This document shows positions 8,144-26,038 of a stretch of 64,000 nt of DNA, one piece after another (position 1 is the first letter of the stretch; each line of letters begins with the position of its first letter). The position numbers and the translations under genes are program-made. The notes beneath the pieces are model-generated. The model had not been told where the DNA came from. It made no database searches and worked only from the letters and a program-made list of their open reading frames with translations. Origin of the DNA: an uncultured Pseudomonadales bacterium (GTDB taxonomy: Bacteria; Pseudomonadota; Gammaproteobacteria; Pseudomonadales; JANQJO01); assembly GCA_964510525.1 (NCBI GenBank), contig CAZECE010000071.1, positions 11,986 through 75,985 on the forward strand, in the 5' to 3' direction.

Positions 8144-8650
8144 TCAGGCTATTTCGATATCGGTTTGCTTCTGTTCAACTTTCTTTTGAACTAAGGTTTG
8201 TAAAAGTTCAAGCTCGCTTCTCGAGACATCAAAAGCGCGCATGATAACAGCTTCATCAACGCCTTCGCTAATCAACTGAGAAATTTTTTGATAATCCATA
8301 TTCGCAACAGCGCCAGAAGACGGAGCACTGTCAGCCGGTTTGGCATTTTGCTGAGCACTAGAGACAACTTCCTTTGGGGTTTCTGGTGTTTGAATTTCGG
8401 GAGGGAGTGTTTCAGCTTCTTGATGCATGACAATACGAGTCAACGTTTTAATCTGTGCCCGCATCAAGGCTTGCTGTTGGTGCCGAGCCATTATACTGGC
8501 TTGTAACTCATCAAAACGGCCATTGACTTCAATCTCGAATTTTAACTGACGATTTTTCATCACAACCGTAAAAGACCACAGGCTAATCAAGCATCCTGTA
8601 ACAAAAAGTAGAATAAAAGCCGAACTGACCAACGCTGAGCTAACCAACAT
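8144..8650 (-). CDS. DUF2802-like protein conserved at the end of che/fla clusters
   Basis: One N-terminal TM helix and a C-terminal ISQLISEGVDEAVIMRAFDVSRSELELL helix-turn-helix-like tail. Its position after cheW matches PA1465-type genes (from memory). ATG 8650 lies 4 nt after the cheW stop; the track start at 8701 is TTG inside cheW. Confidence 0.6.
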   Translation of the reverse strand: MLVSSALVSSAFILLFVTGCLISLWSFTVVMKNRQLKFEIEVNGRFDELQASIMARHQQQALMRAQIKTLTRIVMHQEAETLPPEIQTPETPKEVVSSAQQNAKPADSAPSSGAVANMDYQKISQLISEGVDEAVIMRAFDVSRSELELLQTLVQKKVEQKQTDIEIA

Positions 8651-8654
8651 CGAA

Positions 8655-9149
8655 TTACCCAGCCGCCAGTTCTTTTTGGGAGTCGGGCATTTGAGATTCA
8701 ATCATTTGGCCAACATCCATTAAAATAAGCAACTCACCTTGCTTATGTGAAACACCTTGGAAAAAATGCCGTACATGCTCCTTACCTAGATTTGGCGTAG
8801 GCTCAATGCTGTTGGTTTCGATATCTACGACATCCTCCACGCTATCAACCAAAATACCAACAACCTGTTCAAGAGCCTCAACAATCACTATCCGGGTTTT
8901 TTCTGAAATTTCGTGACTGTCCAAATCGAACAAGCTGCGCGCGTCCAAGACGGTGACAACATTGCCACGCAAGTTAATGATACCCAAAACACTTCTACGA
9001 GTACCAGGCACGGGGGTGATTTCTGCGTATCGCAAAACTTCACGCACCTGCATGACATCCACACCATAACGCTCATCCGCAATACGGAAAGTCGCCCACC
9101 GGATGACTTCAGCCCCGTCAGAACTTCCATGTAACTCTGGTTGTGACAT
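8655..9149 (-). CDS. cheW: Chemotaxis coupling protein CheW
   Basis: Single CheW domain: YGVDVMQVREVL, VLGIINLRGNVVTVLD. ATG start with GGAGAGACA SD. Confidence 0.9.
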   Translation of the reverse strand: MSQPELHGSSDGAEVIRWATFRIADERYGVDVMQVREVLRYAEITPVPGTRRSVLGIINLRGNVVTVLDARSLFDLDSHEISEKTRIVIVEALEQVVGILVDSVEDVVDIETNSIEPTPNLGKEHVRHFFQGVSHKQGELLILMDVGQMIESQMPDSQKELAAG

Positions 9150-9183
9150 ACCTGTCTCTCCCTAATTCAAATCGCTTATGCTG

Positions 9184-9669
9184 CTAGCTTAGGCGGTCCA
9201 TTTCTTTCCATTCTTCTTCAGTTAAAATTTTGCCCAACTCAACCAATATCAACAGAGTATCATTTTTATAACAAACCCCTTGGATAAAACGATTGTTCTC
9301 TTCATTGCCCACATTAGGCGCATGCTCAATTTCGGATTCACGAATATAGACCACTTCGGCCACGCTATCGACCAGCATACCAATGACGTTGTTTCCCGCC
9401 TCAATAATCACAATACGACTGTGATCAGTGATTTCTTGTGAGGCCAGCCCAAAACGCTCCCGAGTATCCATCACCGTTACCACATTACCACGCAAGTTAA
9501 TGATTCCCAACACATAGGAAGGCGCACCAGGTACCGGAGCAATTTCTGTATAACGGAGAACTTCCTGAACTTGCATCACATTGATACCATAAGTCTCACC
9601 CGCTAATTTAAACGTGACCCACTGAACAATAGGGTCATCTGAAACAGTGTTTTGTGCAGCGTGCGACAT
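9184..9669 (-). CDS. cheW: CheW-like coupling protein (tandem paralogue, in the position usually held by parP)
   Basis: Single CheW domain: YGINVMQVQEVL, VLGIINLRGNVVTVMD. Roughly half of positions are identical to the downstream CheW by eye. It has the same GGAGAGACA SD. Confidence 0.85.
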   Translation of the reverse strand: MSHAAQNTVSDDPIVQWVTFKLAGETYGINVMQVQEVLRYTEIAPVPGAPSYVLGIINLRGNVVTVMDTRERFGLASQEITDHSRIVIIEAGNNVIGMLVDSVAEVVYIRESEIEHAPNVGNEENNRFIQGVCYKNDTLLILVELGKILTEEEWKEMDRLS

Positions 9670-9824: not shown

Positions 9825-10511
9825 TTAATCAAGCCCATCCGGTCTAAGCAGAGCACCTTTTGATATCATCAAAACCACCCGACGATTTTTTTGGCGGCCT
9901 GATGATGTCAGGTTATCCCCAATCGGCTGATACTCACCATAACCCACAGCAGCCAACCGCTCAGGCTGAATGCCATTAGCCACTAACTGACGGACCACAG
10001 TCGTGGCTCTCGCGACGGACAACTCCCAATTTGACGAATACTGGCTATTGGCTATTGGCTGATTATCAGTAAAACCTTCAACTCGAATGGCATTTTGAAA
10101 TTGAACCAAAATATCGGCAACTGCATTTAAAACTTCTTGAGCTTCGAGTGTTAATGTCGCTTGACCGACGTCAAATAAGAGTCGACTGGGAATATCTATT
10201 TCCAACCAGTCCGAGCTGGCGTGTATGGATAATTGACTTTCTTGCATCCAATCAGGCAACCCATGATGCAATTGAGCCTCTAATTGGGATAAATTTAACG
10301 AGCCTTGACCATATTGATCATAACCCGTGGACGCCAAGACACCATAAAATGCTTGCTCAAATTGCTCGGACAGCACTTTATACTGGCCTTCATTGACACT
10401 TGAAATCGAATACATAATGACAAAAAATGCAAACAGCAGCGTTATGAAGTCAGCATAAGAAACCACCCATCGAGTTTCCTCATGAACATCGTCATCTATG
10501 AACCGTCTCAT
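9825..10511 (-). CDS. motD: Flagellar stator protein, MotB/MotD family (OmpA-like C-terminus)
   Basis: VSYADFITLLFAFFVIMY TM/plug region and an OmpA-like domain (GFTDNQPI...NWELSVARA). The start shows an ATGA overlap with the upstream gene. Confidence 0.85.
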   Translation of the reverse strand: MRRFIDDDVHEETRWVVSYADFITLLFAFFVIMYSISSVNEGQYKVLSEQFEQAFYGVLASTGYDQYGQGSLNLSQLEAQLHHGLPDWMQESQLSIHASSDWLEIDIPSRLLFDVGQATLTLEAQEVLNAVADILVQFQNAIRVEGFTDNQPIANSQYSSNWELSVARATTVVRQLVANGIQPERLAAVGYGEYQPIGDNLTSSGRQKNRRVVLMISKGALLRPDGLD

Positions 10512-11278
10512 GATGCTTTCGCCAACCCTTGATCGCTGTAATGCAAGTAGCCTTCAAGGCGTTTCTCTAATAGAAGGCTGTGCTCGCCCTCAGCAATGGC
10601 AACCAAACCATCCAACAACACCTCATCTTCGAGCAGTTGATGTCGAATGAGCGCTTTGAGTTTATTGCCAATGGGTAAAAAAATAAGGTTGGCAAAACCA
10701 ACTCCATACAAAGTCGCTATGAAAGCGGTCGCAATGCCCAACCCTAAGCTTTCCGGCTCTCCCAAATGCCCAACAACTTGAATCAAGCCAATAACAGCCC
10801 CCATAATGCCAATGGTCGGAGCATAACCGCCCATAGAACTGAATACTTTGGCGGCCATCATTTGCTTATGTTCTCTGGCCAAAATATCCGTCTCCAACAC
10901 ACTACGAATCGCCTGAGGTTCCGTACCTTCGATCAACAAAGACAACCCTTTTCTCGCAAACTCATCACTTTCAAGATCTAACGCTTCTTGAAGACTGATA
11001 ATGCCTTCTTGACTCACCGAGCCACTCCAAAATTTCACCTTATTCACTTGATCAGAAAGACTTAAGGCAGGAGGGTGAAACACCCAAGAAAGTAAATGAA
11101 CAGCCTCTTTAAAAGTAGACCTAGGCGTTTGTAACAACACCGCCCCGACAGTACCGCCAAGAACAATTAAAAAAGCAGAAGGGTTAACAAAGATGGCAAG
11201 AGCCCCCCCTTCAAGTAAGACTCCTAGTATAACAGCACCCAGTGCCATCAGACCGCCGATTAAGCTCAATTTATCCAC
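10508..11278 (-). CDS. motC: Flagellar stator protein, MotA/MotC/PomA family
   Basis: Four TM helices and MGGYAPTIGIMGAVIGLI. GTG 11278 has GGAGA 6 nt upstream and gives VDKLSLIGG, like MotC N-termini. The track start at 11293 is another GTG. Confidence 0.85.
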   Translation of the reverse strand: MDKLSLIGGLMALGAVILGVLLEGGALAIFVNPSAFLIVLGGTVGAVLLQTPRSTFKEAVHLLSWVFHPPALSLSDQVNKVKFWSGSVSQEGIISLQEALDLESDEFARKGLSLLIEGTEPQAIRSVLETDILAREHKQMMAAKVFSSMGGYAPTIGIMGAVIGLIQVVGHLGEPESLGLGIATAFIATLYGVGFANLIFLPIGNKLKALIRHQLLEDEVLLDGLVAIAEGEHSLLLEKRLEGYLHYSDQGLAKAS

Positions 11279-11324
11279 GCGGATTCTCCGCACTCTTTTA
11301 TATTTATAGCATTAGGCATTTATA

Positions 11325-13898
11325 TTATGAGGCGATACGCCAGATCTCACCACTGGATGACGAACGAGAGGCGTACTCAAATAACATATTAGGCACATCA
11401 AGAATTAAGGCAATTCGGCCATCACCCGTGATGGTCGCACCCGCCATGCCAGCCGTACCATTCAGCATTTTACCCAAAGGCTTGATCACCACTTCTTCTT
11501 GACCAATCAACTGATCGACAACAAACCCAACCTTCTGCGTCCCTACAGACACGATAACCACGTGACCTTCCCCATCACTGGATTCTTCTAAGCGACTTTC
11601 TGGTTCAATTAACCATTCACTTAAGCGAAACAAAGGAATGGGTTTTTCACGCACAATCACCACTTCTTGTCCGTCGACTTCATTCGTCTTAGTCAGATCT
11701 AAGTGGAAAATTTCATTAACGCTGACCAATGGGAAAGCAAAAGTTTGCTCGCCAAGCATCACCATCAACGTAGGCATAATAGCCAACGTTAGAGGCACTT
11801 TGATCGTTAATAGCGTTCCTTTACCCGGTTCAGAAGAAACATTGATGCTGCCATTGAGTTGAGTGATTTTCGTCTTAACAACGTCCATCCCAACACCACG
11901 ACCTGAAATATCAGAAATCTCTTCTTTTGTAGAAAATCCTGGATGAAAAATTAAATTAAAGGCTTCATTGTCAGTTAAACGCTCAGCCGCTTCAAAATCC
12001 ATCAACCCTTTTTCTTCAGCCTTACGTCGTAACACACTGGCATCCATACCTGCACCATCGTCTTTGATGGTCAGCATAATATGATCGCCTTCTTGTTCAG
12101 CAGACAGCACAACATTTCCCGCTGCGTCTTTACCTGATTGCTTTCGTGTTTCAGGGTCTTCCACACCGTGATCCACCGCATTACGCACTAAGTGGACCAA
12201 AGGATCCGCCAAGGCCTCAACCAGGTTTTTATCCAGATCCGTCTCTTCACCTTTAAGAACCAAGTTCACTTCTTTTTTAAGCGATCGAGCCAAATCTCTG
12301 ACCACACGAGGGAAACGACCAAATACTTTTTTAATGGGCTGCATACGCGTTTTCATCACCGACGCTTGTAAGTCGGCCGTCACGACATCCAGGTTAGCCA
12401 CCGCTTTGGACATGGCTTCATCGGTTGTTTTTAACCCCAGACGAACCAAACGATTCCGCACCAGCACCAGTTCGCCAACCATGTTCATGATGTCGTCTAG
12501 ACGCTTAGTGTCGACCCGTACGGTTGTCTCGGCTGGCGGGGCATCCTTGGCAACCGGTTTTTGCGCCGCCGCTCGCGGCGTTCTTTCAGCAGGTTTAGCA
12601 GCCGCTGGTTTTGCAGTAGTTGGCTTTGCGATAGCCGGCTTAGAAGCAGCAGGAACTTCTTTCTTTGCAGCAGCAGGAGCAGCCGTAGGTGTCAGTGTTG
12701 GTGCCGGCGCTTTTGGAGATTCAGCAGGCTTGCTAACTTCAGCTGGCTTAGGTATTTCAGCTGTTGTCGCGTCTGAATTAGCGGTATTACTAGAAGTCGA
12801 GGGGGTAGTCGCAGATGCAGCCGCCGGAGCTTGAGCTGCAGTAGGCTGACTGGAAGAAGGTTTATTAGCAGACGGATTATTTCCAGGCTGTTTATTACTA
12901 GACTTAGGCATTACCTTATCATGACCATGCAAAGCGTCTAATAAAGATTCAAACTCATCATCCGAAATATGTTCATCAGAACTGTTGATAATCGCATCGA
13001 GAGCACTGTTATTTGCTGGCGCTTCAGTATTTTCTTGAGCATCTACATGAGCTGGTTCAGGTGGGCTGATAGGCTCTGAACTGCCCTTCGCTTCTGGAGG
13101 CGAAGCGGCTGGCGCCTCACCTTTGGTCTGGCCTGGCGCTCCACCTGCACCGTGCAATTGATCTAAGAGCGCCTCAAACTCACTTTCTGTGATTTCATCA
13201 CTGCTGGCCTTCGCATCTGATGCATTGGCGTTAGCTTGAGATGACTCACCCGGTTTAGCGGATTCCGAATTAGCGTTTGTGCTGTTTTCAGTCGCACTCG
13301 CTTCTGCAGCACTGGCTTGCGGCGCATCGAACAATTCGATTCCGGCTTCTTGTGGCGCCTCTTGCGGTGTCTCTTGCGGAGCAGCTTGAGAAGGCGCATC
13401 AAAAAGCTCAGCATCGCTATTCTCTGAAGCACTATTATCCGGTGTGATATCCGCCGTGCTGTCAGATGGTGGCGTTTCTGCATCTTGCTGTGCCGGCGCT
13501 TCTGCTGCATCAGGCGCCACCAGTTTATGCAGGGCTTCCAGAATATCAGGCGGTGCCGGATCAGGGTAGGCTCGCCCTGTCACCACATCAAACATGTCTT
13601 TCAAGACATCGGTTGAGCGCAGCACCACATCCATTAATTCCGGTGTGACGAGCAATTTGCCATTTCTAAGCTCATCAAACACATTCTCTGCAATATGACA
13701 AAGCTCAACTAAAGGCTCTAATTGCAGGAAACCAGCACCGCCCTTTATCGTATGAAAGCCTCGGAAAATTGCATTCAACAGATCAAGATCATCACCAGAG
13801 GTTTCCAGAGTGACCAACTGCTCAAACAGAAGCTCGAGGATTTCTCCCGCTTCAACTAAAAAATCACCAAGGATCTCTTCATCAGCATCAAAACTCAT
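11325..13898 (-). CDS. cheA: Chemotaxis histidine kinase CheA (Hpt, long disordered linker, dimerisation, HATPase, CheW-like; no obvious P2)
   Basis: Hpt motif FHTIKGGAG. Dimerisation region TVRVDTKRLDDIMNMVGELV. N-box HLVRNAVDHG, G1 DDGAGM, G2 GRGVGMDVV. C-terminal CheW-like domain. Confidence 0.95.
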   Translation of the reverse strand: MSFDADEEILGDFLVEAGEILELLFEQLVTLETSGDDLDLLNAIFRGFHTIKGGAGFLQLEPLVELCHIAENVFDELRNGKLLVTPELMDVVLRSTDVLKDMFDVVTGRAYPDPAPPDILEALHKLVAPDAAEAPAQQDAETPPSDSTADITPDNSASENSDAELFDAPSQAAPQETPQEAPQEAGIELFDAPQASAAEASATENSTNANSESAKPGESSQANANASDAKASSDEITESEFEALLDQLHGAGGAPGQTKGEAPAASPPEAKGSSEPISPPEPAHVDAQENTEAPANNSALDAIINSSDEHISDDEFESLLDALHGHDKVMPKSSNKQPGNNPSANKPSSSQPTAAQAPAAASATTPSTSSNTANSDATTAEIPKPAEVSKPAESPKAPAPTLTPTAAPAAAKKEVPAASKPAIAKPTTAKPAAAKPAERTPRAAAQKPVAKDAPPAETTVRVDTKRLDDIMNMVGELVLVRNRLVRLGLKTTDEAMSKAVANLDVVTADLQASVMKTRMQPIKKVFGRFPRVVRDLARSLKKEVNLVLKGEETDLDKNLVEALADPLVHLVRNAVDHGVEDPETRKQSGKDAAGNVVLSAEQEGDHIMLTIKDDGAGMDASVLRRKAEEKGLMDFEAAERLTDNEAFNLIFHPGFSTKEEISDISGRGVGMDVVKTKITQLNGSINVSSEPGKGTLLTIKVPLTLAIMPTLMVMLGEQTFAFPLVSVNEIFHLDLTKTNEVDGQEVVIVREKPIPLFRLSEWLIEPESRLEESSDGEGHVVIVSVGTQKVGFVVDQLIGQEEVVIKPLGKMLNGTAGMAGATITGDGRIALILDVPNMLFEYASRSSSSGEIWRIAS

Positions 13899-13923: not shown

Positions 13924-14715
13924 CTAAAATCCCAAACTGGACAATAAGTCATCCACATCATCTTGATTGGCCACAACATCTTCCCTTTCATCTTTATTGA
14001 TAATGGGGCCTTCTAAATATTCCGCTTCTTGGTTTTCCATTTCATAGCGGATTGCATCAAGTTCAGAACTATCACCCGAAAAGCTTTGCAAAGTTGCCGC
14101 TAATTTAACAAGCTCAACTAAATTATCTTGAACATCAGAAACAATGCTGATGACTTTTTTAATGACCTGGCCCGTTATGTCTTGAAAGTCTTGAGCCAGC
14201 AATATGTTATTTAAGTTTTCATTCAGCTGATCTGAATTATCAATGGCTTCGTCTAAAAAGTTTTCCATTTCGCCATAAAGCGCTCGAAACTCTTCTGCAC
14301 TGAGTTCACGCTTAATCAATCTTGCCCAAGTCTCTTTTAATTCACGTGCTCTGGAGCCCAAATTTTCAGAAATCGGCACCGTATCTTCGACCATGTCCAT
14401 GGTTTTATTCGCCGCATCTTCTGTAGTCTTTATCACAAACTGCAAACGATCTGACGCACTTAAAATTTGCTGAGCTTCGCTGTTGTCAGTAGCCTCTTTG
14501 CCTTTCGCATCAATGCTGAAATTAACTAACGCACTGTGCAAAGCACGAGTCATTTTACCGATTTCATGATACAAGGTTTTATCTTTGATCCGATTGATTT
14601 CGCCTAACTGGCGATAGGCATCGGTCGTATTTCCGGCTTCTAGTGCCACTAAAAGTTCTCGGGCAGACTCGGCGAGATCCTCTCGATATTGATCGGTTAT
14701 TTTTAAACTGTCCAA
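13924..14715 (-). CDS. cheZ: CheY-P phosphatase CheZ
   Basis: Active-site region AQDFQDITGQ and the C-terminal CheY-binding peptide DDVDDLLSSLGF. TTG start with AAGGA upstream. Confidence 0.9.
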   Translation of the reverse strand: MDSLKITDQYREDLAESARELLVALEAGNTTDAYRQLGEINRIKDKTLYHEIGKMTRALHSALVNFSIDAKGKEATDNSEAQQILSASDRLQFVIKTTEDAANKTMDMVEDTVPISENLGSRARELKETWARLIKRELSAEEFRALYGEMENFLDEAIDNSDQLNENLNNILLAQDFQDITGQVIKKVISIVSDVQDNLVELVKLAATLQSFSGDSSELDAIRYEMENQEAEYLEGPIINKDEREDVVANQDDVDDLLSSLGF

Positions 14716-14770: not shown

Positions 14771-15157
14771 TTACGCGCCAGCCCTTTCAAAAATCTTATC
14801 AATTTTGTCTTTCAACGCGGCCGCCGTAAAAGGTTTCACCACATAGCCGTTCACACCAGCTTGCGCCGCTTCAATAATTTGCTCACGCTTCGCTTCAGCT
14901 GTTACCATCAAAACAGGTAAGCCGTTTAGTTTTTCATCCGCTCGAACGGCTTTGAGTAACTCAATCCCTGTCATGCCTGGCATGTTCCAATCCGTTACCA
15001 AAAAGTCGAATTTCGTACTTTGCAACATGGGTAAAGCGGTATTACCATCATCCGCTTCATCCGTATTGGTGAAACCAAGATCACGCAATAAGTTTTTGAT
15101 GATTCTGCGCATAGTCGAGAAATCATCGACGATGAGAATCTTCATGTTTTTGTCCAA
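14771..15157 (-). CDS. cheY: Chemotaxis response regulator CheY
   Basis: [27 protein letters not shown]. The TTG start has AAGGAGAGG 5 nt upstream; the alternative ATG 15145 gives MKILIVDD. Confidence 0.95.
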
Positions 15158-16072: not shown

Positions 16073-16891
16073 CTAACTGGCAACCCCTTGCACTAAACGC
16101 TCTACAAAAAACTCCAAATTACCGCGTGGAACAGAAGGCAGTGGCCATGAATCAACTTTTTTAGCCAAACTCTTAAACGCCAATGAAGCTTTACTTCTTG
16201 GGTAAAGATCGCAAATGGCCTTCTGCCGCTGCACCGCCTTCCTGAGATTTTCATCGAAAGGAATAGCCCCAGTATATTGCAAGGTGACATCTAAAAATCG
16301 ATCGGTCACTTTAACCAGCTTTTCATAGATTTCACGCGACTCTTGAACCGTACGCGTCATATTCGCTAAGACATGAAATCGATAGAGGTTGTAATCTTGA
16401 TTTAGCATTTTAATCATTGCATATGCATCTGTGATAGATGTCGGCTCATTACATACCACCAGTAATAGCTCTTGAGCTGCGCGAACAAAACTGACCACGG
16501 TATCCGAAATACCCGCCGCTGTATCAATGATCAACACATCAACTTGATCTGCCAAATCATTAAAAGCATTGATTAACCCGGCATGCTGCAATGCATTCAA
16601 CCCAACCATTTCATGGGTACCGGAAGCCGCCGGAACAATGCGAATGCCTTTGGGGCCTTGCACCATGATGTCATTTAAACTGCATTCGCCATTCAAAACA
16701 TCGTGCAAATTACGTTTTGCCGAAATCCCCAACAAAATATCCACATTGGCCAACCCTAAGTCGGCGTCTAACAACACCACCCGGCGCCCCATTTCAGCCA
16801 AAGAGATCGCCAAATTTACGGAAACATTGGTTTTTCCAACGCCGCCTTTGCCACCAGTAACGGCTATCACCTGTACGGAATGCCTTCCCAT
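16073..16891 (-). CDS. flhG: MinD/ParA-type ATPase FlhG (FleN), flagellar number regulator
   Basis: Deviant Walker A TGGKGGVGKT. It lies immediately downstream of flhF. Confidence 0.9.
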   Translation of the reverse strand: MGRHSVQVIAVTGGKGGVGKTNVSVNLAISLAEMGRRVVLLDADLGLANVDILLGISAKRNLHDVLNGECSLNDIMVQGPKGIRIVPAASGTHEMVGLNALQHAGLINAFNDLADQVDVLIIDTAAGISDTVVSFVRAAQELLLVVCNEPTSITDAYAMIKMLNQDYNLYRFHVLANMTRTVQESREIYEKLVKVTDRFLDVTLQYTGAIPFDENLRKAVQRQKAICDLYPRSKASLAFKSLAKKVDSWPLPSVPRGNLEFFVERLVQGVAS

Positions 16892-18610: not shown

Positions 18611-20800
18611 CTAGCTTTGCCCAATTTGAGCAATCACGGTTATATTTTTTCCTTCTGGAATTTCGTTGTAAGACAACACGCTTAAACCTGCGAGCCCATA
18701 GCGTAAAAATCGAGCCAACATATTACGAATACCCGAAGCGACCAATAAAACGGGAGGCAACCCTTGCATTTCTTGTTGGGTCACCAGGTTAGCCACCGAT
18801 TCTTGTAATTTTTTAGCCAAAGTGGGTTCAATGGTGGCATCGGTTTCTTTACCACCATTCTGCTTGGCTTGAAAAACTGCTTGCGTCAGAATTTGCTCTA
18901 ATTCAGGCTGAAGCGTCATAACTTTTAACTCTTGTTCGGGACCCGTTAGCCCATGAACAATCATTCTCGACAATGCCAACCGAGCCGCACTGACCAAAGC
19001 TTCGTGGTTTTGTGCCTGATCACTGACTTGAGACAAGGCTTCCAAAATGGTGCGTAAATCTTTAATCGGAATTTGCTCACGTAACAACATTTGCAATACG
19101 CTTAACAAGGTACTGAGCGAGATAGGCTGAGGCACAACATTTTCAACCAATTTGGCATTCTTTTTACTCAGCTGATCCAATAATTTTTGTAATTCTTCAA
19201 ATCCAAGCAATTCATCCGCATGTGTTTGCATCACATGATTAATGTGAGTCGCAATCACCGTACTGGGATCCACCACTGTGTACCCAAGATTTTGCGCCTG
19301 ATCTTTTTGAGCGGCTTCAATCCAGATGGCATCCAAGCCAAATGCGGGGTCTTTTCCAGGAATACCCGGCACGTTGCCAAACACTTGACCAGGATTGATC
19401 GCCAACTCACGATCCACATGGATTTCAGCTTCCGCAACCGTGACCCCTTTTAAAGTAATACGATACTGAGTGGGCAATAACTCTAAATTATCTCGAATAT
19501 GAACCGTCGGCATTAAAAAGCCCATTTCTTGGGATAATTTTTTTCTAACCCCTCTGACTCGCGTCAACAAATCACCTTCTTGGCTGTCATCCACTAACCC
19601 AATTAAGCGATAACCAACTTCCAGTCCCACCAGGTCGACCGGTTGAACATCGTCCCAACCCAACTCTTTTGGTTGGGAACTGACTTCCCCGCTGATAGGC
19701 TCACCGGATTCAAGCGTTCCTTGAATAGGTTGTGCGTTACCGGTGGATCCCATGTTCGCAGCCCCACTGTTACCAGTCCCCAAGTTAGCCATGACCCCAG
19801 ATCCTTGATCGTCCGGCAACGGCCGTTTTTGAATAAACACCGACAACCCAACACAAGCGCCCGCCAAGGTCAGAAACGACAAATGCGGCATGCCTGGCAC
19901 AATACCCAAAACACCCAGTACACCGGCCGCTAACATCAACGCATCTGGGCTATTCAACATCTGCTTGCGAACTTGATTAGATAAATCTTGTGCGCTATTG
20001 ACACGCGTTACCATAATAGCGGCAGAAACTGACAGTAACAGTGACGGCACTTGCGCCACTAATCCATCACCAATGGTCAATAAGGCGTATTTTTGCATTG
20101 CATCGGCAAACCCTAAGTCGTGTTGCGCAACGCCAATTGCGAGACCACCAATGAGGTTAATTAACAAAATTAATATGCCGGCAACTGCATCCCCACGCAC
20201 AAATTTGCTGGCACCATCCATCGCCCCATAAAAATCCGCCTCTTCCGCAATATCGGCCCTTCTAGCCTTCGCTTCCGTTTGATCGATCAACCCGGCATTT
20301 AAATCCGCATCAATGGCCATTTGCTTACCGGGCATGGCATCCAATGTAAAACGAGCCGTAACTTCTGAAATACGCCCCGCACCCTTGGTCACGACCATAA
20401 AATTGATAATGATTAAAATCAGGAATACCACCAAGCCCACCGCATAATTGCCACCAATCAACACCTCGCCAAAGGCTTCAATCACTTTCCCAGCAGCATC
20501 CCCACCTTGATGGCCTTCTAGCAGCACAATACGTGTTGAAGCGATGTTCAATGCCAAACGCAGTAAAGTCGCAACCAATAGCACCGTGGGAAATATGGCG
20601 AACTCAACAGGCCGCAAGGTTTGCAAACTGACCAATAACACTAATAACGACAACGCAATGTTAAACGAGAAAAAAACATCAAGCAGAATGACGGGCAATG
20701 GCAACGTCATCATCGCCAAGATCGCTACCAAAAAGATCGGCGGCGCCAACTGGCTGTAGTTTAATGACTTAACGGTTTGTTGCAGATCGGCGATCACCAC
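18611..20800 (-). CDS. flhA: Flagellar export gate protein FlhA
   Basis: N-terminal 8-TM domain (MMTLPLPVILLDVFFSFNIALS, TIGDGLVAQVPSLLLS) and a C-terminal cytoplasmic ring domain. The TTG/GTG/GTG start cluster lies at 20803-20795; GAGGG is 5 nt before GTG 20800. Confidence 0.95.
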   Translation of the reverse strand: MVIADLQQTVKSLNYSQLAPPIFLVAILAMMTLPLPVILLDVFFSFNIALSLLVLLVSLQTLRPVEFAIFPTVLLVATLLRLALNIASTRIVLLEGHQGGDAAGKVIEAFGEVLIGGNYAVGLVVFLILIIINFMVVTKGAGRISEVTARFTLDAMPGKQMAIDADLNAGLIDQTEAKARRADIAEEADFYGAMDGASKFVRGDAVAGILILLINLIGGLAIGVAQHDLGFADAMQKYALLTIGDGLVAQVPSLLLSVSAAIMVTRVNSAQDLSNQVRKQMLNSPDALMLAAGVLGVLGIVPGMPHLSFLTLAGACVGLSVFIQKRPLPDDQGSGVMANLGTGNSGAANMGSTGNAQPIQGTLESGEPISGEVSSQPKELGWDDVQPVDLVGLEVGYRLIGLVDDSQEGDLLTRVRGVRKKLSQEMGFLMPTVHIRDNLELLPTQYRITLKGVTVAEAEIHVDRELAINPGQVFGNVPGIPGKDPAFGLDAIWIEAAQKDQAQNLGYTVVDPSTVIATHINHVMQTHADELLGFEELQKLLDQLSKKNAKLVENVVPQPISLSTLLSVLQMLLREQIPIKDLRTILEALSQVSDQAQNHEALVSAARLALSRMIVHGLTGPEQELKVMTLQPELEQILTQAVFQAKQNGGKETDATIEPTLAKKLQESVANLVTQQEMQGLPPVLLVASGIRNMLARFLRYGLAGLSVLSYNEIPEGKNITVIAQIGQS

Positions 20801-20846
20801 CAATACCCTCGTAAAATTGACACAAATTGATCATCATTAAGCTACA

Positions 20847-25060: not shown

Positions 25061-26038
25061 TCAAGAGACTTTCTTGCGCTCATAACGATCCATCACTTGC
25101 AGCGCCATGCTGCCTTTAGAAACCCCTAATTTTGTTTTAAACGTCGGCACCCCATTGGCCATTAACGTTACATGATCTGGCATATCAACCGGAATCACAT
25201 CACCTGCTTCCAAATCACAAAGGGACTGCAAAGACATTTTTTTCTCAACCACTCGCGCTCTAATTGGCACCTTCGCATCCATCAAATCTTCTCTCAGTGC
25301 TTTACCCCAACGCTCATCGGAATCATCCACATCACTCTGAACACCAGAATCCAGGACTTCTCGAACCGGCTCGATCATCGAATATGGCATCGTAAGATGC
25401 ATATCACCACCGCCACCATCCAACTCAATGTGAAAGCTGTTCACAATCACCACTTCACTTGGGCTGACAATATTCGCCAACGAAGGGTTTACTTCCATAC
25501 CTAAATAATCAAACTCGATGTTGTAGACAGGGTTCCAGGCTTCTTCCATATCTTTAAAAGCCGTCTCTAACACCATTTGAATCACACGATTTTCGGTCGG
25601 CGTAAACTCTCGACCTTCGATCTTGACGTGACGCCCATCGCCGCCAAAAAAATTATCGACCAACTTAAACACCAACTTCGCATCTAGGACGAACAACCCC
25701 GTGCCTCTTAAAGGTTTGAGCTTGACCATATTCAAACTGGTGGGAACGTATAGGGTATGCACATATTCGCCAAACTTTTGAATTTGAACGCCACCCACTG
25801 AGACATCCGCTGTACGGCGTAACAAATTAAACAAACTAATGCGCGTGTATCGAGCAAAACGCTCATTGATCATTTCCAGCGTCGGCATGCGCCCACGCAC
25901 AATCCGATCTTGAGTGGCTAGGTCATAGCCTTTAATCCCCTCCGCGCCTTCATCGCCTTCCGTTTCAACAGAGCCGTCATCGACCCCGTGAAGCAAGGCA
26001 TCAATTTCATCCTGTGAGAGTAAATCTTGTATGGACAC
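25061..26038 (-). CDS. fliM: Flagellar motor switch protein FliM
   Basis: N-terminal CheY-P binding peptide LSQDEIDALLHG, plus middle and SpoA-like domains. GTG start with AGGAAA upstream. Confidence 0.95.
   Translation of the reverse strand: MSIQDLLSQDEIDALLHGVDDGSVETEGDEGAEGIKGYDLATQDRIVRGRMPTLEMINERFARYTRISLFNLLRRTADVSVGGVQIQKFGEYVHTLYVPTSLNMVKLKPLRGTGLFVLDAKLVFKLVDNFFGGDGRHVKIEGREFTPTENRVIQMVLETAFKDMEEAWNPVYNIEFDYLGMEVNPSLANIVSPSEVVIVNSFHIELDGGGGDMHLTMPYSMIEPVREVLDSGVQSDVDDSDERWGKALREDLMDAKVPIRARVVEKKMSLQSLCDLEAGDVIPVDMPDHVTLMANGVPTFKTKLGVSKGSMALQVMDRYERKKVS

Follow-up and report, generated by a model that had tools for sequence, protein, structure and literature searches.

Most CheA kinases carry no P2 domain, and how such proteins recruit CheY efficiently is not known. 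This question is raised in a clear form by the cheA gene in a chemotaxis and flagellar cluster on contig CAZECE010000071.1 of an uncultured Pseudomonadales bacterium, within the 64,000-nucleotide stretch analysed in this study (referred to as "the window"): what is the role of the long region between its phospho-accepting P1 domain and its dimerisation domain, P3? We found that this region lacks a folded P2, is predicted to be disordered and carries two copies of a conserved motif with the core EFExLLD. Very probably, it is the flexible P1-P3 tether of a P2-less, F6-type CheA, equipped with helix-forming docking motifs of the same family as the core of LID, an extra CheA region of Vibrio and Pseudomonas. 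A partner other than the known LID partner, ParP, is considered below, with CheY as the leading candidate.

Outside the linker, the protein is a conventional CheA. Pfam placed Hpt at residues 8-104, H-kinase_dim at 458-517 (beginning with TTVRVDTKRLDDIMN), HATPase_c at 565-704 and the CheW-like domain at 711-839, which is the complete core set required of an F6-type CheA, the class itself (in the scheme of Wuichet and Zhulin) being assigned by synteny and core identity rather than by class-specific hidden Markov models (HMMs). The core is 81-82% identical to those of the closest CheA relatives, and the score against Pseudomonas CheA is 623 bits (BLASTP). An identical protein (P0001) is present on metagenome and NCBI contigs. 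The initial annotation of this DNA, which had been made from the letters alone, placed the phosphorylated histidine (His49) within FHTIKGG and the start of the dimerisation domain around residue 458, and both placements agree with the translation and with Pfam. All of the strings that it quoted, including the FliM N-terminus and the CheZ C-terminus, are present where it had located them.

The same annotation had claimed that no P2 lies between P1 and P3 and that the linker is of low complexity, and both claims hold. No match to the P2 and CheY-binding models of Pfam was obtained at E<=10, either with the whole CheA or with the linker alone, no NCBIfam model matched within the linker, and none of 120 CheA homologues carries these Pfam families. 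When a linker profile built from 120 sequences was compared with residues 125-265 of E. coli CheA by hhalign, the probability was 0.14% (E 0.41). A search of PDB sequences with the linker returned matches at the noise level only (a ketosynthase, E ~1), and matches to the whole CheA spanned P1 and P3-P5 only. The only additional Pfam scorer in the protein was a sub-threshold SHOCT match, which is in truth the EFEALLD peptide. Alanine, proline, serine and glutamate account for 76, 44, 40 and 31, respectively, of the 330 linker residues. In an AlphaFold2 model of full-length CheA, computed from the 120-sequence alignment, the predicted local distance difference test (pLDDT) score was below 50 across almost all of residues 134-462 and no strands were formed; the main exceptions were helices of 7-12 residues at 238-249, 298-304 and 313-323 (block pLDDT 63-80). 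These results confirm that the window CheA has no folded P2 and that its linker is predicted to be disordered save for short helices. The linker is also polarised in charge, as its first ~200 residues carry a net charge of -38 and its last 62 residues one of +7, and this polarity is kept in 119 relatives (median +4 in the last 60 residues and -41 in the rest). As a separate observation, the sole local match between the linker profile and the P2 region in the hhalign comparison paired DEITEDEFEALL (residues 234-245) with GDIAEDDITAVL (residues 201-212 of E. coli CheA, inside P2); it covers 12 columns and, at E 0.41, is not significant. At most it is a hint that the EFExLLD motif could have been derived from a helix of P2.

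Two of the predicted helices coincide with the two acidic, phenylalanine-containing peptides that had been pointed out in the linker, ITESEFEALLDQLHG at residues 236-250 (nucleotides 13149-13193) and ISDDEFESLLDALHG at residues 311-325 (nucleotides 12924-12968), both of which were confirmed at these positions. Their cores are EFEALLD and EFESLLD, and both lie between the end of P1 (about residue 127) and the start of P3 (residue 458). One to four copies of I[ST][DE]xEF[ED]xLLDxLHGKG were found in every one of the 120 best homologues, which belong to the Pseudomonadales in the broad sense (Ketobacter, Thalassolituus, Oleispira, Pseudomonas and others), and the repeat family occurs as well in about 200 CheAs of the loci surveyed below. 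When the 120 sequences are aligned, the invariant linker columns are confined to the two motifs (I236, E240 and F241 in the first; I311, E315, F316, L319, L320, D321 and L323 in the second). Over 633 motif instances (345 of them unique), the E-F pair and L12 are invariant, and I3 and L11 nearly so. A 19-column HMM of the motif, run with hmmsearch against all open reading frames (ORFs) of 86 loci, gave no non-CheA protein above ~4 bits. The two repeats are conserved short linear motifs, far above chance. At the DNA level they are only 60% identical to each other, with synonymous differences, which rules out a recent tandem DNA duplication as their origin and points instead to an old duplication maintained by selection on the protein.

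Neither the absence of P2 nor the presence of EFExLLD repeats is new. More than 50% of CheAs have no P2 even when HHpred is used, and AlphaFold gives an extended unstructured region in its place (Berry, Andrianova and Zhulin 2023, PMC10782961); the terms "LID", "ParP" and "disordered" have 0 occurrences in the text of that paper, and linear motifs in the linker go unmentioned there as well. The CheA of Pseudomonas putida has three repeats, DEITDAEFESLLDQLHGKG, with the core EFExLLD, and AlphaFold 3 predicts that these repeats touch ParP at its CheW-like domain, a contact on which the models did not all agree (bioRxiv 10.1101/2025.10.27.684771). The repeats overlap LID, which is sufficient for the interaction with ParP in Vibrio parahaemolyticus (bioRxiv 10.1101/2025.10.27.684771) and which in Vibrio is an additional domain located after P2 and before P3 (PMC5706961; PMC7534058). 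The initial annotation had read the peptides as CheY-docking motifs that replace P2. What stands of this is the existence of conserved linear motifs in a P2-less linker; the motifs had already been described, and it is ParP, not CheY, that has been documented or predicted to bind them. A replacement of P2 is not required either, as more than half of all CheAs do without one (PMC10782961) and the Vibrio LID comes besides a P2 (PMC7534058).

The gene content around cheA bears directly on the partner. We surveyed 80 species-representative genome loci and 80 metagenome loci, together with 7 context look-ups, which were annotated by BLAST with reference proteins from loci L004 to L007. The window carries, in order, flhA, flhF, flhG, fliA, cheY, cheZ, cheA, motC, motD, two cheW genes (161 and 164 codons), a weak DUF2802-like gene, exbB, exbD, msbA and lpxK. 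From flhA through cheA to cheW and DUF2802, this order matches that of Pseudomonas, minus cheB, parC and parP: in Pseudomonas (L004), cheA is followed by cheB, motC, motD, parC, parP, cheW and the DUF2802 gene, and in Ketobacter-type relatives (L006) the order is parC, parP, cheW, cheW. In 117 of 121 informative loci, parC-parP is flanked by motD (or cheB) on one side and cheW on the other, whereas in four (the window, L005, L008, which is GCA_037380725.1, and L009, which is contig JANQJO010000114.1) motD is followed directly by cheW. The JGI metagenome scan added no further locus of the latter kind (0 of 44 informative loci). The number of repeats differs between the two sets: the 117 loci with parC-parP have three repeats in 66 cases, four in 47 and two in 4, and the four loci that lack parC-parP, yet reach cheW, have two repeats in each case, the first (LLDALDE-type) repeat being gone from this group. 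No ParC or ParP homologue was detected by BLAST with the reference proteins anywhere in the window, nor within ±9-10 kb in L005, L008 and L009. Almost all related loci have cheB after cheA, but in the window, and also in L008, there is no cheB between cheA and motC; no cheB homologue was found in the window, where a 254-residue ORF at 29487-30251 matches CheB weakly (62 bits). We infer that the window lineage deleted parC-parP, and cheB too, from its chemotaxis cluster. In three Cellvibrio-like metagenome loci, L140 (14439-18512), L126 and L160, a 1357-residue ORF follows motD at the place of parC, and parC-parP could not be scored there.

The repeats that remain in the four parC-parP-less loci are as conserved as the folded domains. 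Pairwise identities among these loci are 0.75 for repeat 1, 0.78 for repeat 2, 0.73 for P1 and 0.83 for P3-P5, as compared to 0.15 for the remainder of the linker, whose composition differs as well (rich in Ala, Pro and Ser in the window; in Lys, Asp, Glu and Ser in L009). With the repeats 75-78% and the other linker positions 15% identical, purifying selection must act on the repeats even where parC-parP is missing from the cluster. This makes it very improbable that they are functionless leftovers decaying after the loss of parC-parP. The drop from three or four repeats to two, with the first one gone, is what such decay would produce, but the key residues of the remaining two are invariant, and the four loci are not very recent relatives, given a core identity of 0.83 and linkers that have been randomised.

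A simpler possibility is that the repeats in the window CheA do exactly what LID does elsewhere, docking the AIF domain of ParP, with parC and parP encoded at another place in the genome. The LID-ParP interaction has been reported (PMC5706961; PMC7534058) and contacts have been predicted with AlphaFold 3 (bioRxiv 2025.10.27.684771), repeats and parC-parP occur together in the 117 loci mentioned, and chemotaxis clusters do split, as in L050. The direct motD-cheW junction of the four exceptions nevertheless looks like a clean deletion, and the 155-bp gap between motD and cheW in the window leaves no room for a parC-parP remnant. We therefore regard an ordinary LID function with distant parC-parP as rather unlikely. 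Most likely, the retained repeats serve a second, ParP-independent partner. The change in repeat number points in the same direction, as it suggests that some of the repeats served ParP and went with it, while the ones that were kept do something else.

The explanation that we favour for the window CheA can be outlined as follows. The motifs I[ST][DE]xEF[ED]xLLDxLHG would keep a partner protein near the kinase. The disordered acidic chain would act as a flexible leash, with the basic Pro/Ala/Lys-rich stretch joining this leash to P3. In relatives, where three or four repeats accompany parC-parP, at least some would dock the CheW-like domain of ParP and thereby anchor arrays at the pole; in the window lineage, with parC-parP and cheB deleted, the two repeats left would dock the second partner. 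The leading single candidate for this partner in the window genome is CheY (or CheB), an assignment that we put forward tentatively, from the resemblance of the motifs to known CheY-binding peptides. The α4-β5-α5 face of CheY may bind the repeats as it does the similar C-terminal peptide of CheZ and N-terminal peptide of FliM, and such docking would raise the local concentration of CheY beside P1, as P2 does in E. coli. What keeps this idea viable is solely that the lineage lost parC-parP from the cluster yet retains two motifs under selection. As a whole, with both of its layers, the tether and its CheY partner, this is the best overall explanation available to us, although we would give it somewhat less than an even chance.

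The resemblance to FliM and CheZ, also claimed initially, may hold at the level of patterns. A BLOSUM-smoothed position-specific scoring matrix (PSSM) of the CheA motif ranked the FliM N-peptide third among the ~28,000 non-CheA sequence windows of the 64-kb stretch. With the same matrix, 69 of 86 loci had the C-terminal peptide of CheZ among the top 5 of ~9,400 windows (median rank 3), a result that amounts to one observation replicated over related loci. The registers can be aligned as I-T-D-D-E-F-E-A-L-L in CheA with L-S-Q-D-E-I-D-A-L-L in FliM, and EFESLLDALHG in CheA with DVDDLLSSLGF in CheZ, and [LI][ST]xxE[IF][DE]xLL is common to the CheA repeats and FliM. The same likeness could be read differently. 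The EIDAL peptide of FliM/FliY is reported to be a ligand of FlhG, whose gene belongs to the same cluster, and the common register extends in the window FliM N-peptide to [LI][ST]xxE[IF][DE]xLL(..)HG, so that the repeats might mimic this N-peptide and bind FlhG (or, in loci that have it, its paralogue ParC), tying the kinase to the flagellated pole. Being purely analogical, this proposal appears improbable to us; the phenylalanine is invariant where FliM has isoleucine, and the CheA motif has an extra DxL turn before HG.

Several points weigh against CheY as the partner. FliM-like peptides prefer phosphorylated CheY, and are not ideal for the recruitment of a substrate. The best non-CheA match to the PSSM in the window, at 11.3 bits, was neither of the above peptides but a segment of FlhA, ELLGFEELQKLLDQLSKKN (around residue 531 of the product of 18611-20803, with ELQKLLDQL), which we take to be a chance resemblance and against which the scores of FliM and CheZ were gauged; and the motif HMM (hmmsearch) gave the FliM and CheZ peptides no meaningful score. 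The absence of parC-parP was established for the window and, in the relatives, over ±9-10 kb rather than for whole genomes, and clusters can be split, as L050 exemplifies. The four loci without parC-parP probably represent one ancestral loss, with an effective sample size of 1, and the lower number of repeats upon this loss fits a link to ParP. Finally, LID binds the AIF domain of ParP and is found only with ParC/ParP (PMC5706961; PMC7534058), and the repeats have been stated to be confined to organisms that possess ParC and ParP (bioRxiv 10.1101/2025.10.27.684771). An AlphaFold2 chimera of CheY (124 residues) and residues 196-335 of CheA, run from a single sequence, had a mean pLDDT of 46.8, and CheY itself was not confidently folded in it.

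Another CheW-like domain, be it CheW, the divergent second CheW, CheV or the P5 domain of CheA, might be bound by the repeats instead, stabilising the kinase in the array in place of the ParP AIF domain. By analogy this is plausible, as the known LID partner is itself a CheW-like domain (PMC5706961) and two cheW genes stand in place of parC-parP-cheW in all four of the loci without parC-parP. The 161-residue CheW of the window is canonical, being 75% identical to that of Pseudomonas, and its 164-residue paralogue is divergent, with 55-60% identity to canonical CheW. The same pair is found beside parP, however, in Ketobacter-type loci (L006, L013 and L059). The pair therefore predates the loss of parC-parP and its second member is no replacement for ParP, and neither window CheW resembles ParP. 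We consider a CheW-like partner unlikely, if less so than an ordinary LID function with ParP encoded elsewhere.

In comparison with known systems, the window CheA is closest to that of P. putida, with which it shares the P1-P3 position of the repeats, the motif (DEITDAEFESLLDQLHGKG versus DEITESEFEALLDQLHGAG), the type of cluster and the absence of P2. It differs in having two repeats instead of three, an additional helix (I[IV]NS) ahead of repeat 2 and a much longer linker (330 residues), in a cluster without parC, parP and cheB. The Vibrio LID (Ringgaard et al. 2014), as it is described in the papers that cite it (PMC5706961; PMC7534058), is likewise an extra region before P3, one that recruits an array-associated partner; by that description it follows a P2 and occurs only with ParC/ParP, unlike the window region, which has no P2 and no local ParC/ParP. 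The P2 of E. coli and Thermotoga occupies the same place in CheA and possibly has the same job, raising the concentration of response regulator near P1. It is a folded alpha/beta domain of ~70-80 residues, whereas the window has only helical peptides of ~17 residues in a disordered chain, without sequence or profile similarity to P2. With FliM-N (LSQxEIDALL) and CheZ-C (DDLLxSLGF), the repeats share, as a pattern, an acidic amphipathic helix in the register acidic-hydrophobic-acidic-x-L-L, but in the CheA motif Phe is invariant, an Ile precedes it by five residues and an LHGKG tail is conserved, and the motif is internal and repeated rather than terminal. Like P2-less CheAs in general (PMC10782961), the protein combines a four-domain core with an extended unstructured linker between Hpt and the dimerisation domain.

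LID and the EFExLLD repeats are currently read solely as ParP anchors. To this the window locus adds an orphan LID, in which the repeats persist, cut to two, in a lineage whose parC-parP has been deleted from the cluster. This contradicts, at least at the level of the locus, the stated exclusivity of repeats and ParC-ParP, and it makes a second partner likely. It is possible, though on the present resemblances rather doubtful, that the role of the repeats goes beyond ParP anchoring throughout this large gammaproteobacterial class of CheA, with at least two of them docking CheY (perhaps CheB) and doing the job of P2, and with ParP and CheY competing for, or sharing, the peptide array. If CheY is the partner, a linear-motif substitute for P2 would exist across Pseudomonas, Vibrio and many marine gammaproteobacteria; if the array is contested or shared by ParP and CheY, anchoring would be linked to phosphotransfer; and if parP is merely elsewhere in the genome, the finding is an ordinary one. 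The lineage without parC-parP offers a clean test system for other partners of the repeats and, should they also dock CheY, would be a natural "ParP knockout" that lays bare this second function.

Table. Features of the window CheA, of its putative docking peptides and of neighbouring genes.
Feature	Description	Position (nt)	Strand	Basis
cheA	857 aa	11325..13898	minus	ORF; four core Pfam domains, without P2
P1/Hpt domain	aa 1-127; phospho-accepting His49 in FHTIKGG	13518..13898	minus	Pfam Hpt 8-104; AlphaFold2 pLDDT >90 for aa 11-130
P1-P3 linker	aa 128-457; predicted disordered	12528..13517	minus	AlphaFold2 pLDDT, composition, charge
ELFDAP island 1	aa 164-169; [DE][LF]FD-type, acidic-aromatic	13392..13409	minus	sequence
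ELFDAP island 2	aa 188-193	13320..13337	minus	sequence
Repeat 1	DEITESEFEALLDQLHGAG, aa 234-252; EFExLLDxLHG putative docking peptide; predicted helix 238-249	13143..13199	minus	alignment, AlphaFold2
Short helix	SALDAIINSS, aa 298-307	12978..13007	minus	AlphaFold2 helix 298-304
Repeat 2	EHISDDEFESLLDALHGHD, aa 309-327; predicted helix 313-323, pLDDT ~80	12918..12974	minus	alignment, AlphaFold2
Basic linker tail	aa 396-457; Pro/Ala/Lys-rich, net +7, directly before P3	12528..12713	minus	charge count
P3 dimerisation domain	aa 458-517	12348..12527	minus	Pfam H-kinase_dim
cheY	124-128 aa; candidate partner	14771..15157	minus	Pfam Response_reg; 224 bits (BLASTP) to Pseudomonas CheY
cheZ	C-terminal CheY-binding peptide DDVDDLLSSLGF at 13927-13962	13924..14715	minus	Pfam CheZ
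FliM N-terminal peptide	LSQDEIDALLHG; used for comparison	25985..26020	minus	sequence
motC and motD	261 aa and 228 aa; directly after cheA	9825..11293	minus	Pfam
cheW pair in tandem	161 aa and 164 aa; immediately downstream of motD	8655..9669	minus	Pfam; BLAST against ParC/ParP references negative
flhG	MinD/ParA-like ATPase; sole ParA-like gene of the 64-kb window	16073..16891	minus	Pfam

Apart from the repeats, the linker contains other short islands. The two ELFDAP strings noted initially were confirmed. About half of the relatives have acidic-aromatic islands of this kind (DLFD, FFDI, FIDL) ahead of the repeats, though not every member of the closest clade does; judged by sequence, they form a looser class that is less general than the EFExLLD repeats. 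The helix before repeat 2 is of a different kind. Its signature, A[EQ]I[IV]NS, is conserved in L005, L008 and L009 and in the proteins P0004, P0023, P0037 and P0039, and I[IV]NS is restricted to the two-repeat group, in which the four members that reach cheW are all without parC/parP and the others lie on contigs that end too early (those of P0023 and P0004 stop just past cheA). The four loci lacking parC-parP share this helix and also an HGxGGxPG tail after repeat 1. In a neighbour-joining tree of the CheA core, which is ~81% identical to nearly everything, the monophyly of these loci was unresolved; as a marker of the clade, the I[IV]NS helix that they have in common does better than this tree.

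The basic tail of the linker (AKPxxAKPAAAKPA-like) might make contact with acidic polar-landmark proteins or with the membrane. The coding sequence of this Ala/Pro/Ser-rich linker has a local G+C fraction of 0.51-0.56, as compared to ~0.43. Two ORFs overlapping the linker, at 12334-12834 (plus strand, 166 residues) and 13163-13510 (minus strand, 115 residues), are not genes but by-products of its composition.

As to the neighbouring genes, cheA and motC are separated by 31 bp (11294-11324). The start of cheY is ambiguous: the longest ORF begins with TTG (128 residues), and the public gene call begins at an ATG four codons downstream (124 residues, MKILIVDD...). At the place of the DUF2802 gene lies an ORF of 185 residues (8144-8701; TTG start, 47-nt overlap with cheW; 168 residues according to the gene caller), which matches DUF2802 weakly, with 24 bits against a cut-off of 33.5 bits. 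In loci that do encode ParP, the N-termini of this protein carry a YLDxLL peptide (IQSYLDTLL, IFQYLDEMLSD and LQGYLDQLL in the genes beginning at 15034 in L004, 15299 in L006 and 15035 in L007, respectively). The peptide is also present, as LGDYLDELL, in a 137-residue ORF between parC and parP in loci of the Bacterioplanoides/Thalassolituus type (L007, 14629-15042), and it is similar to the part of the CheA repeat that reads LLDxL.

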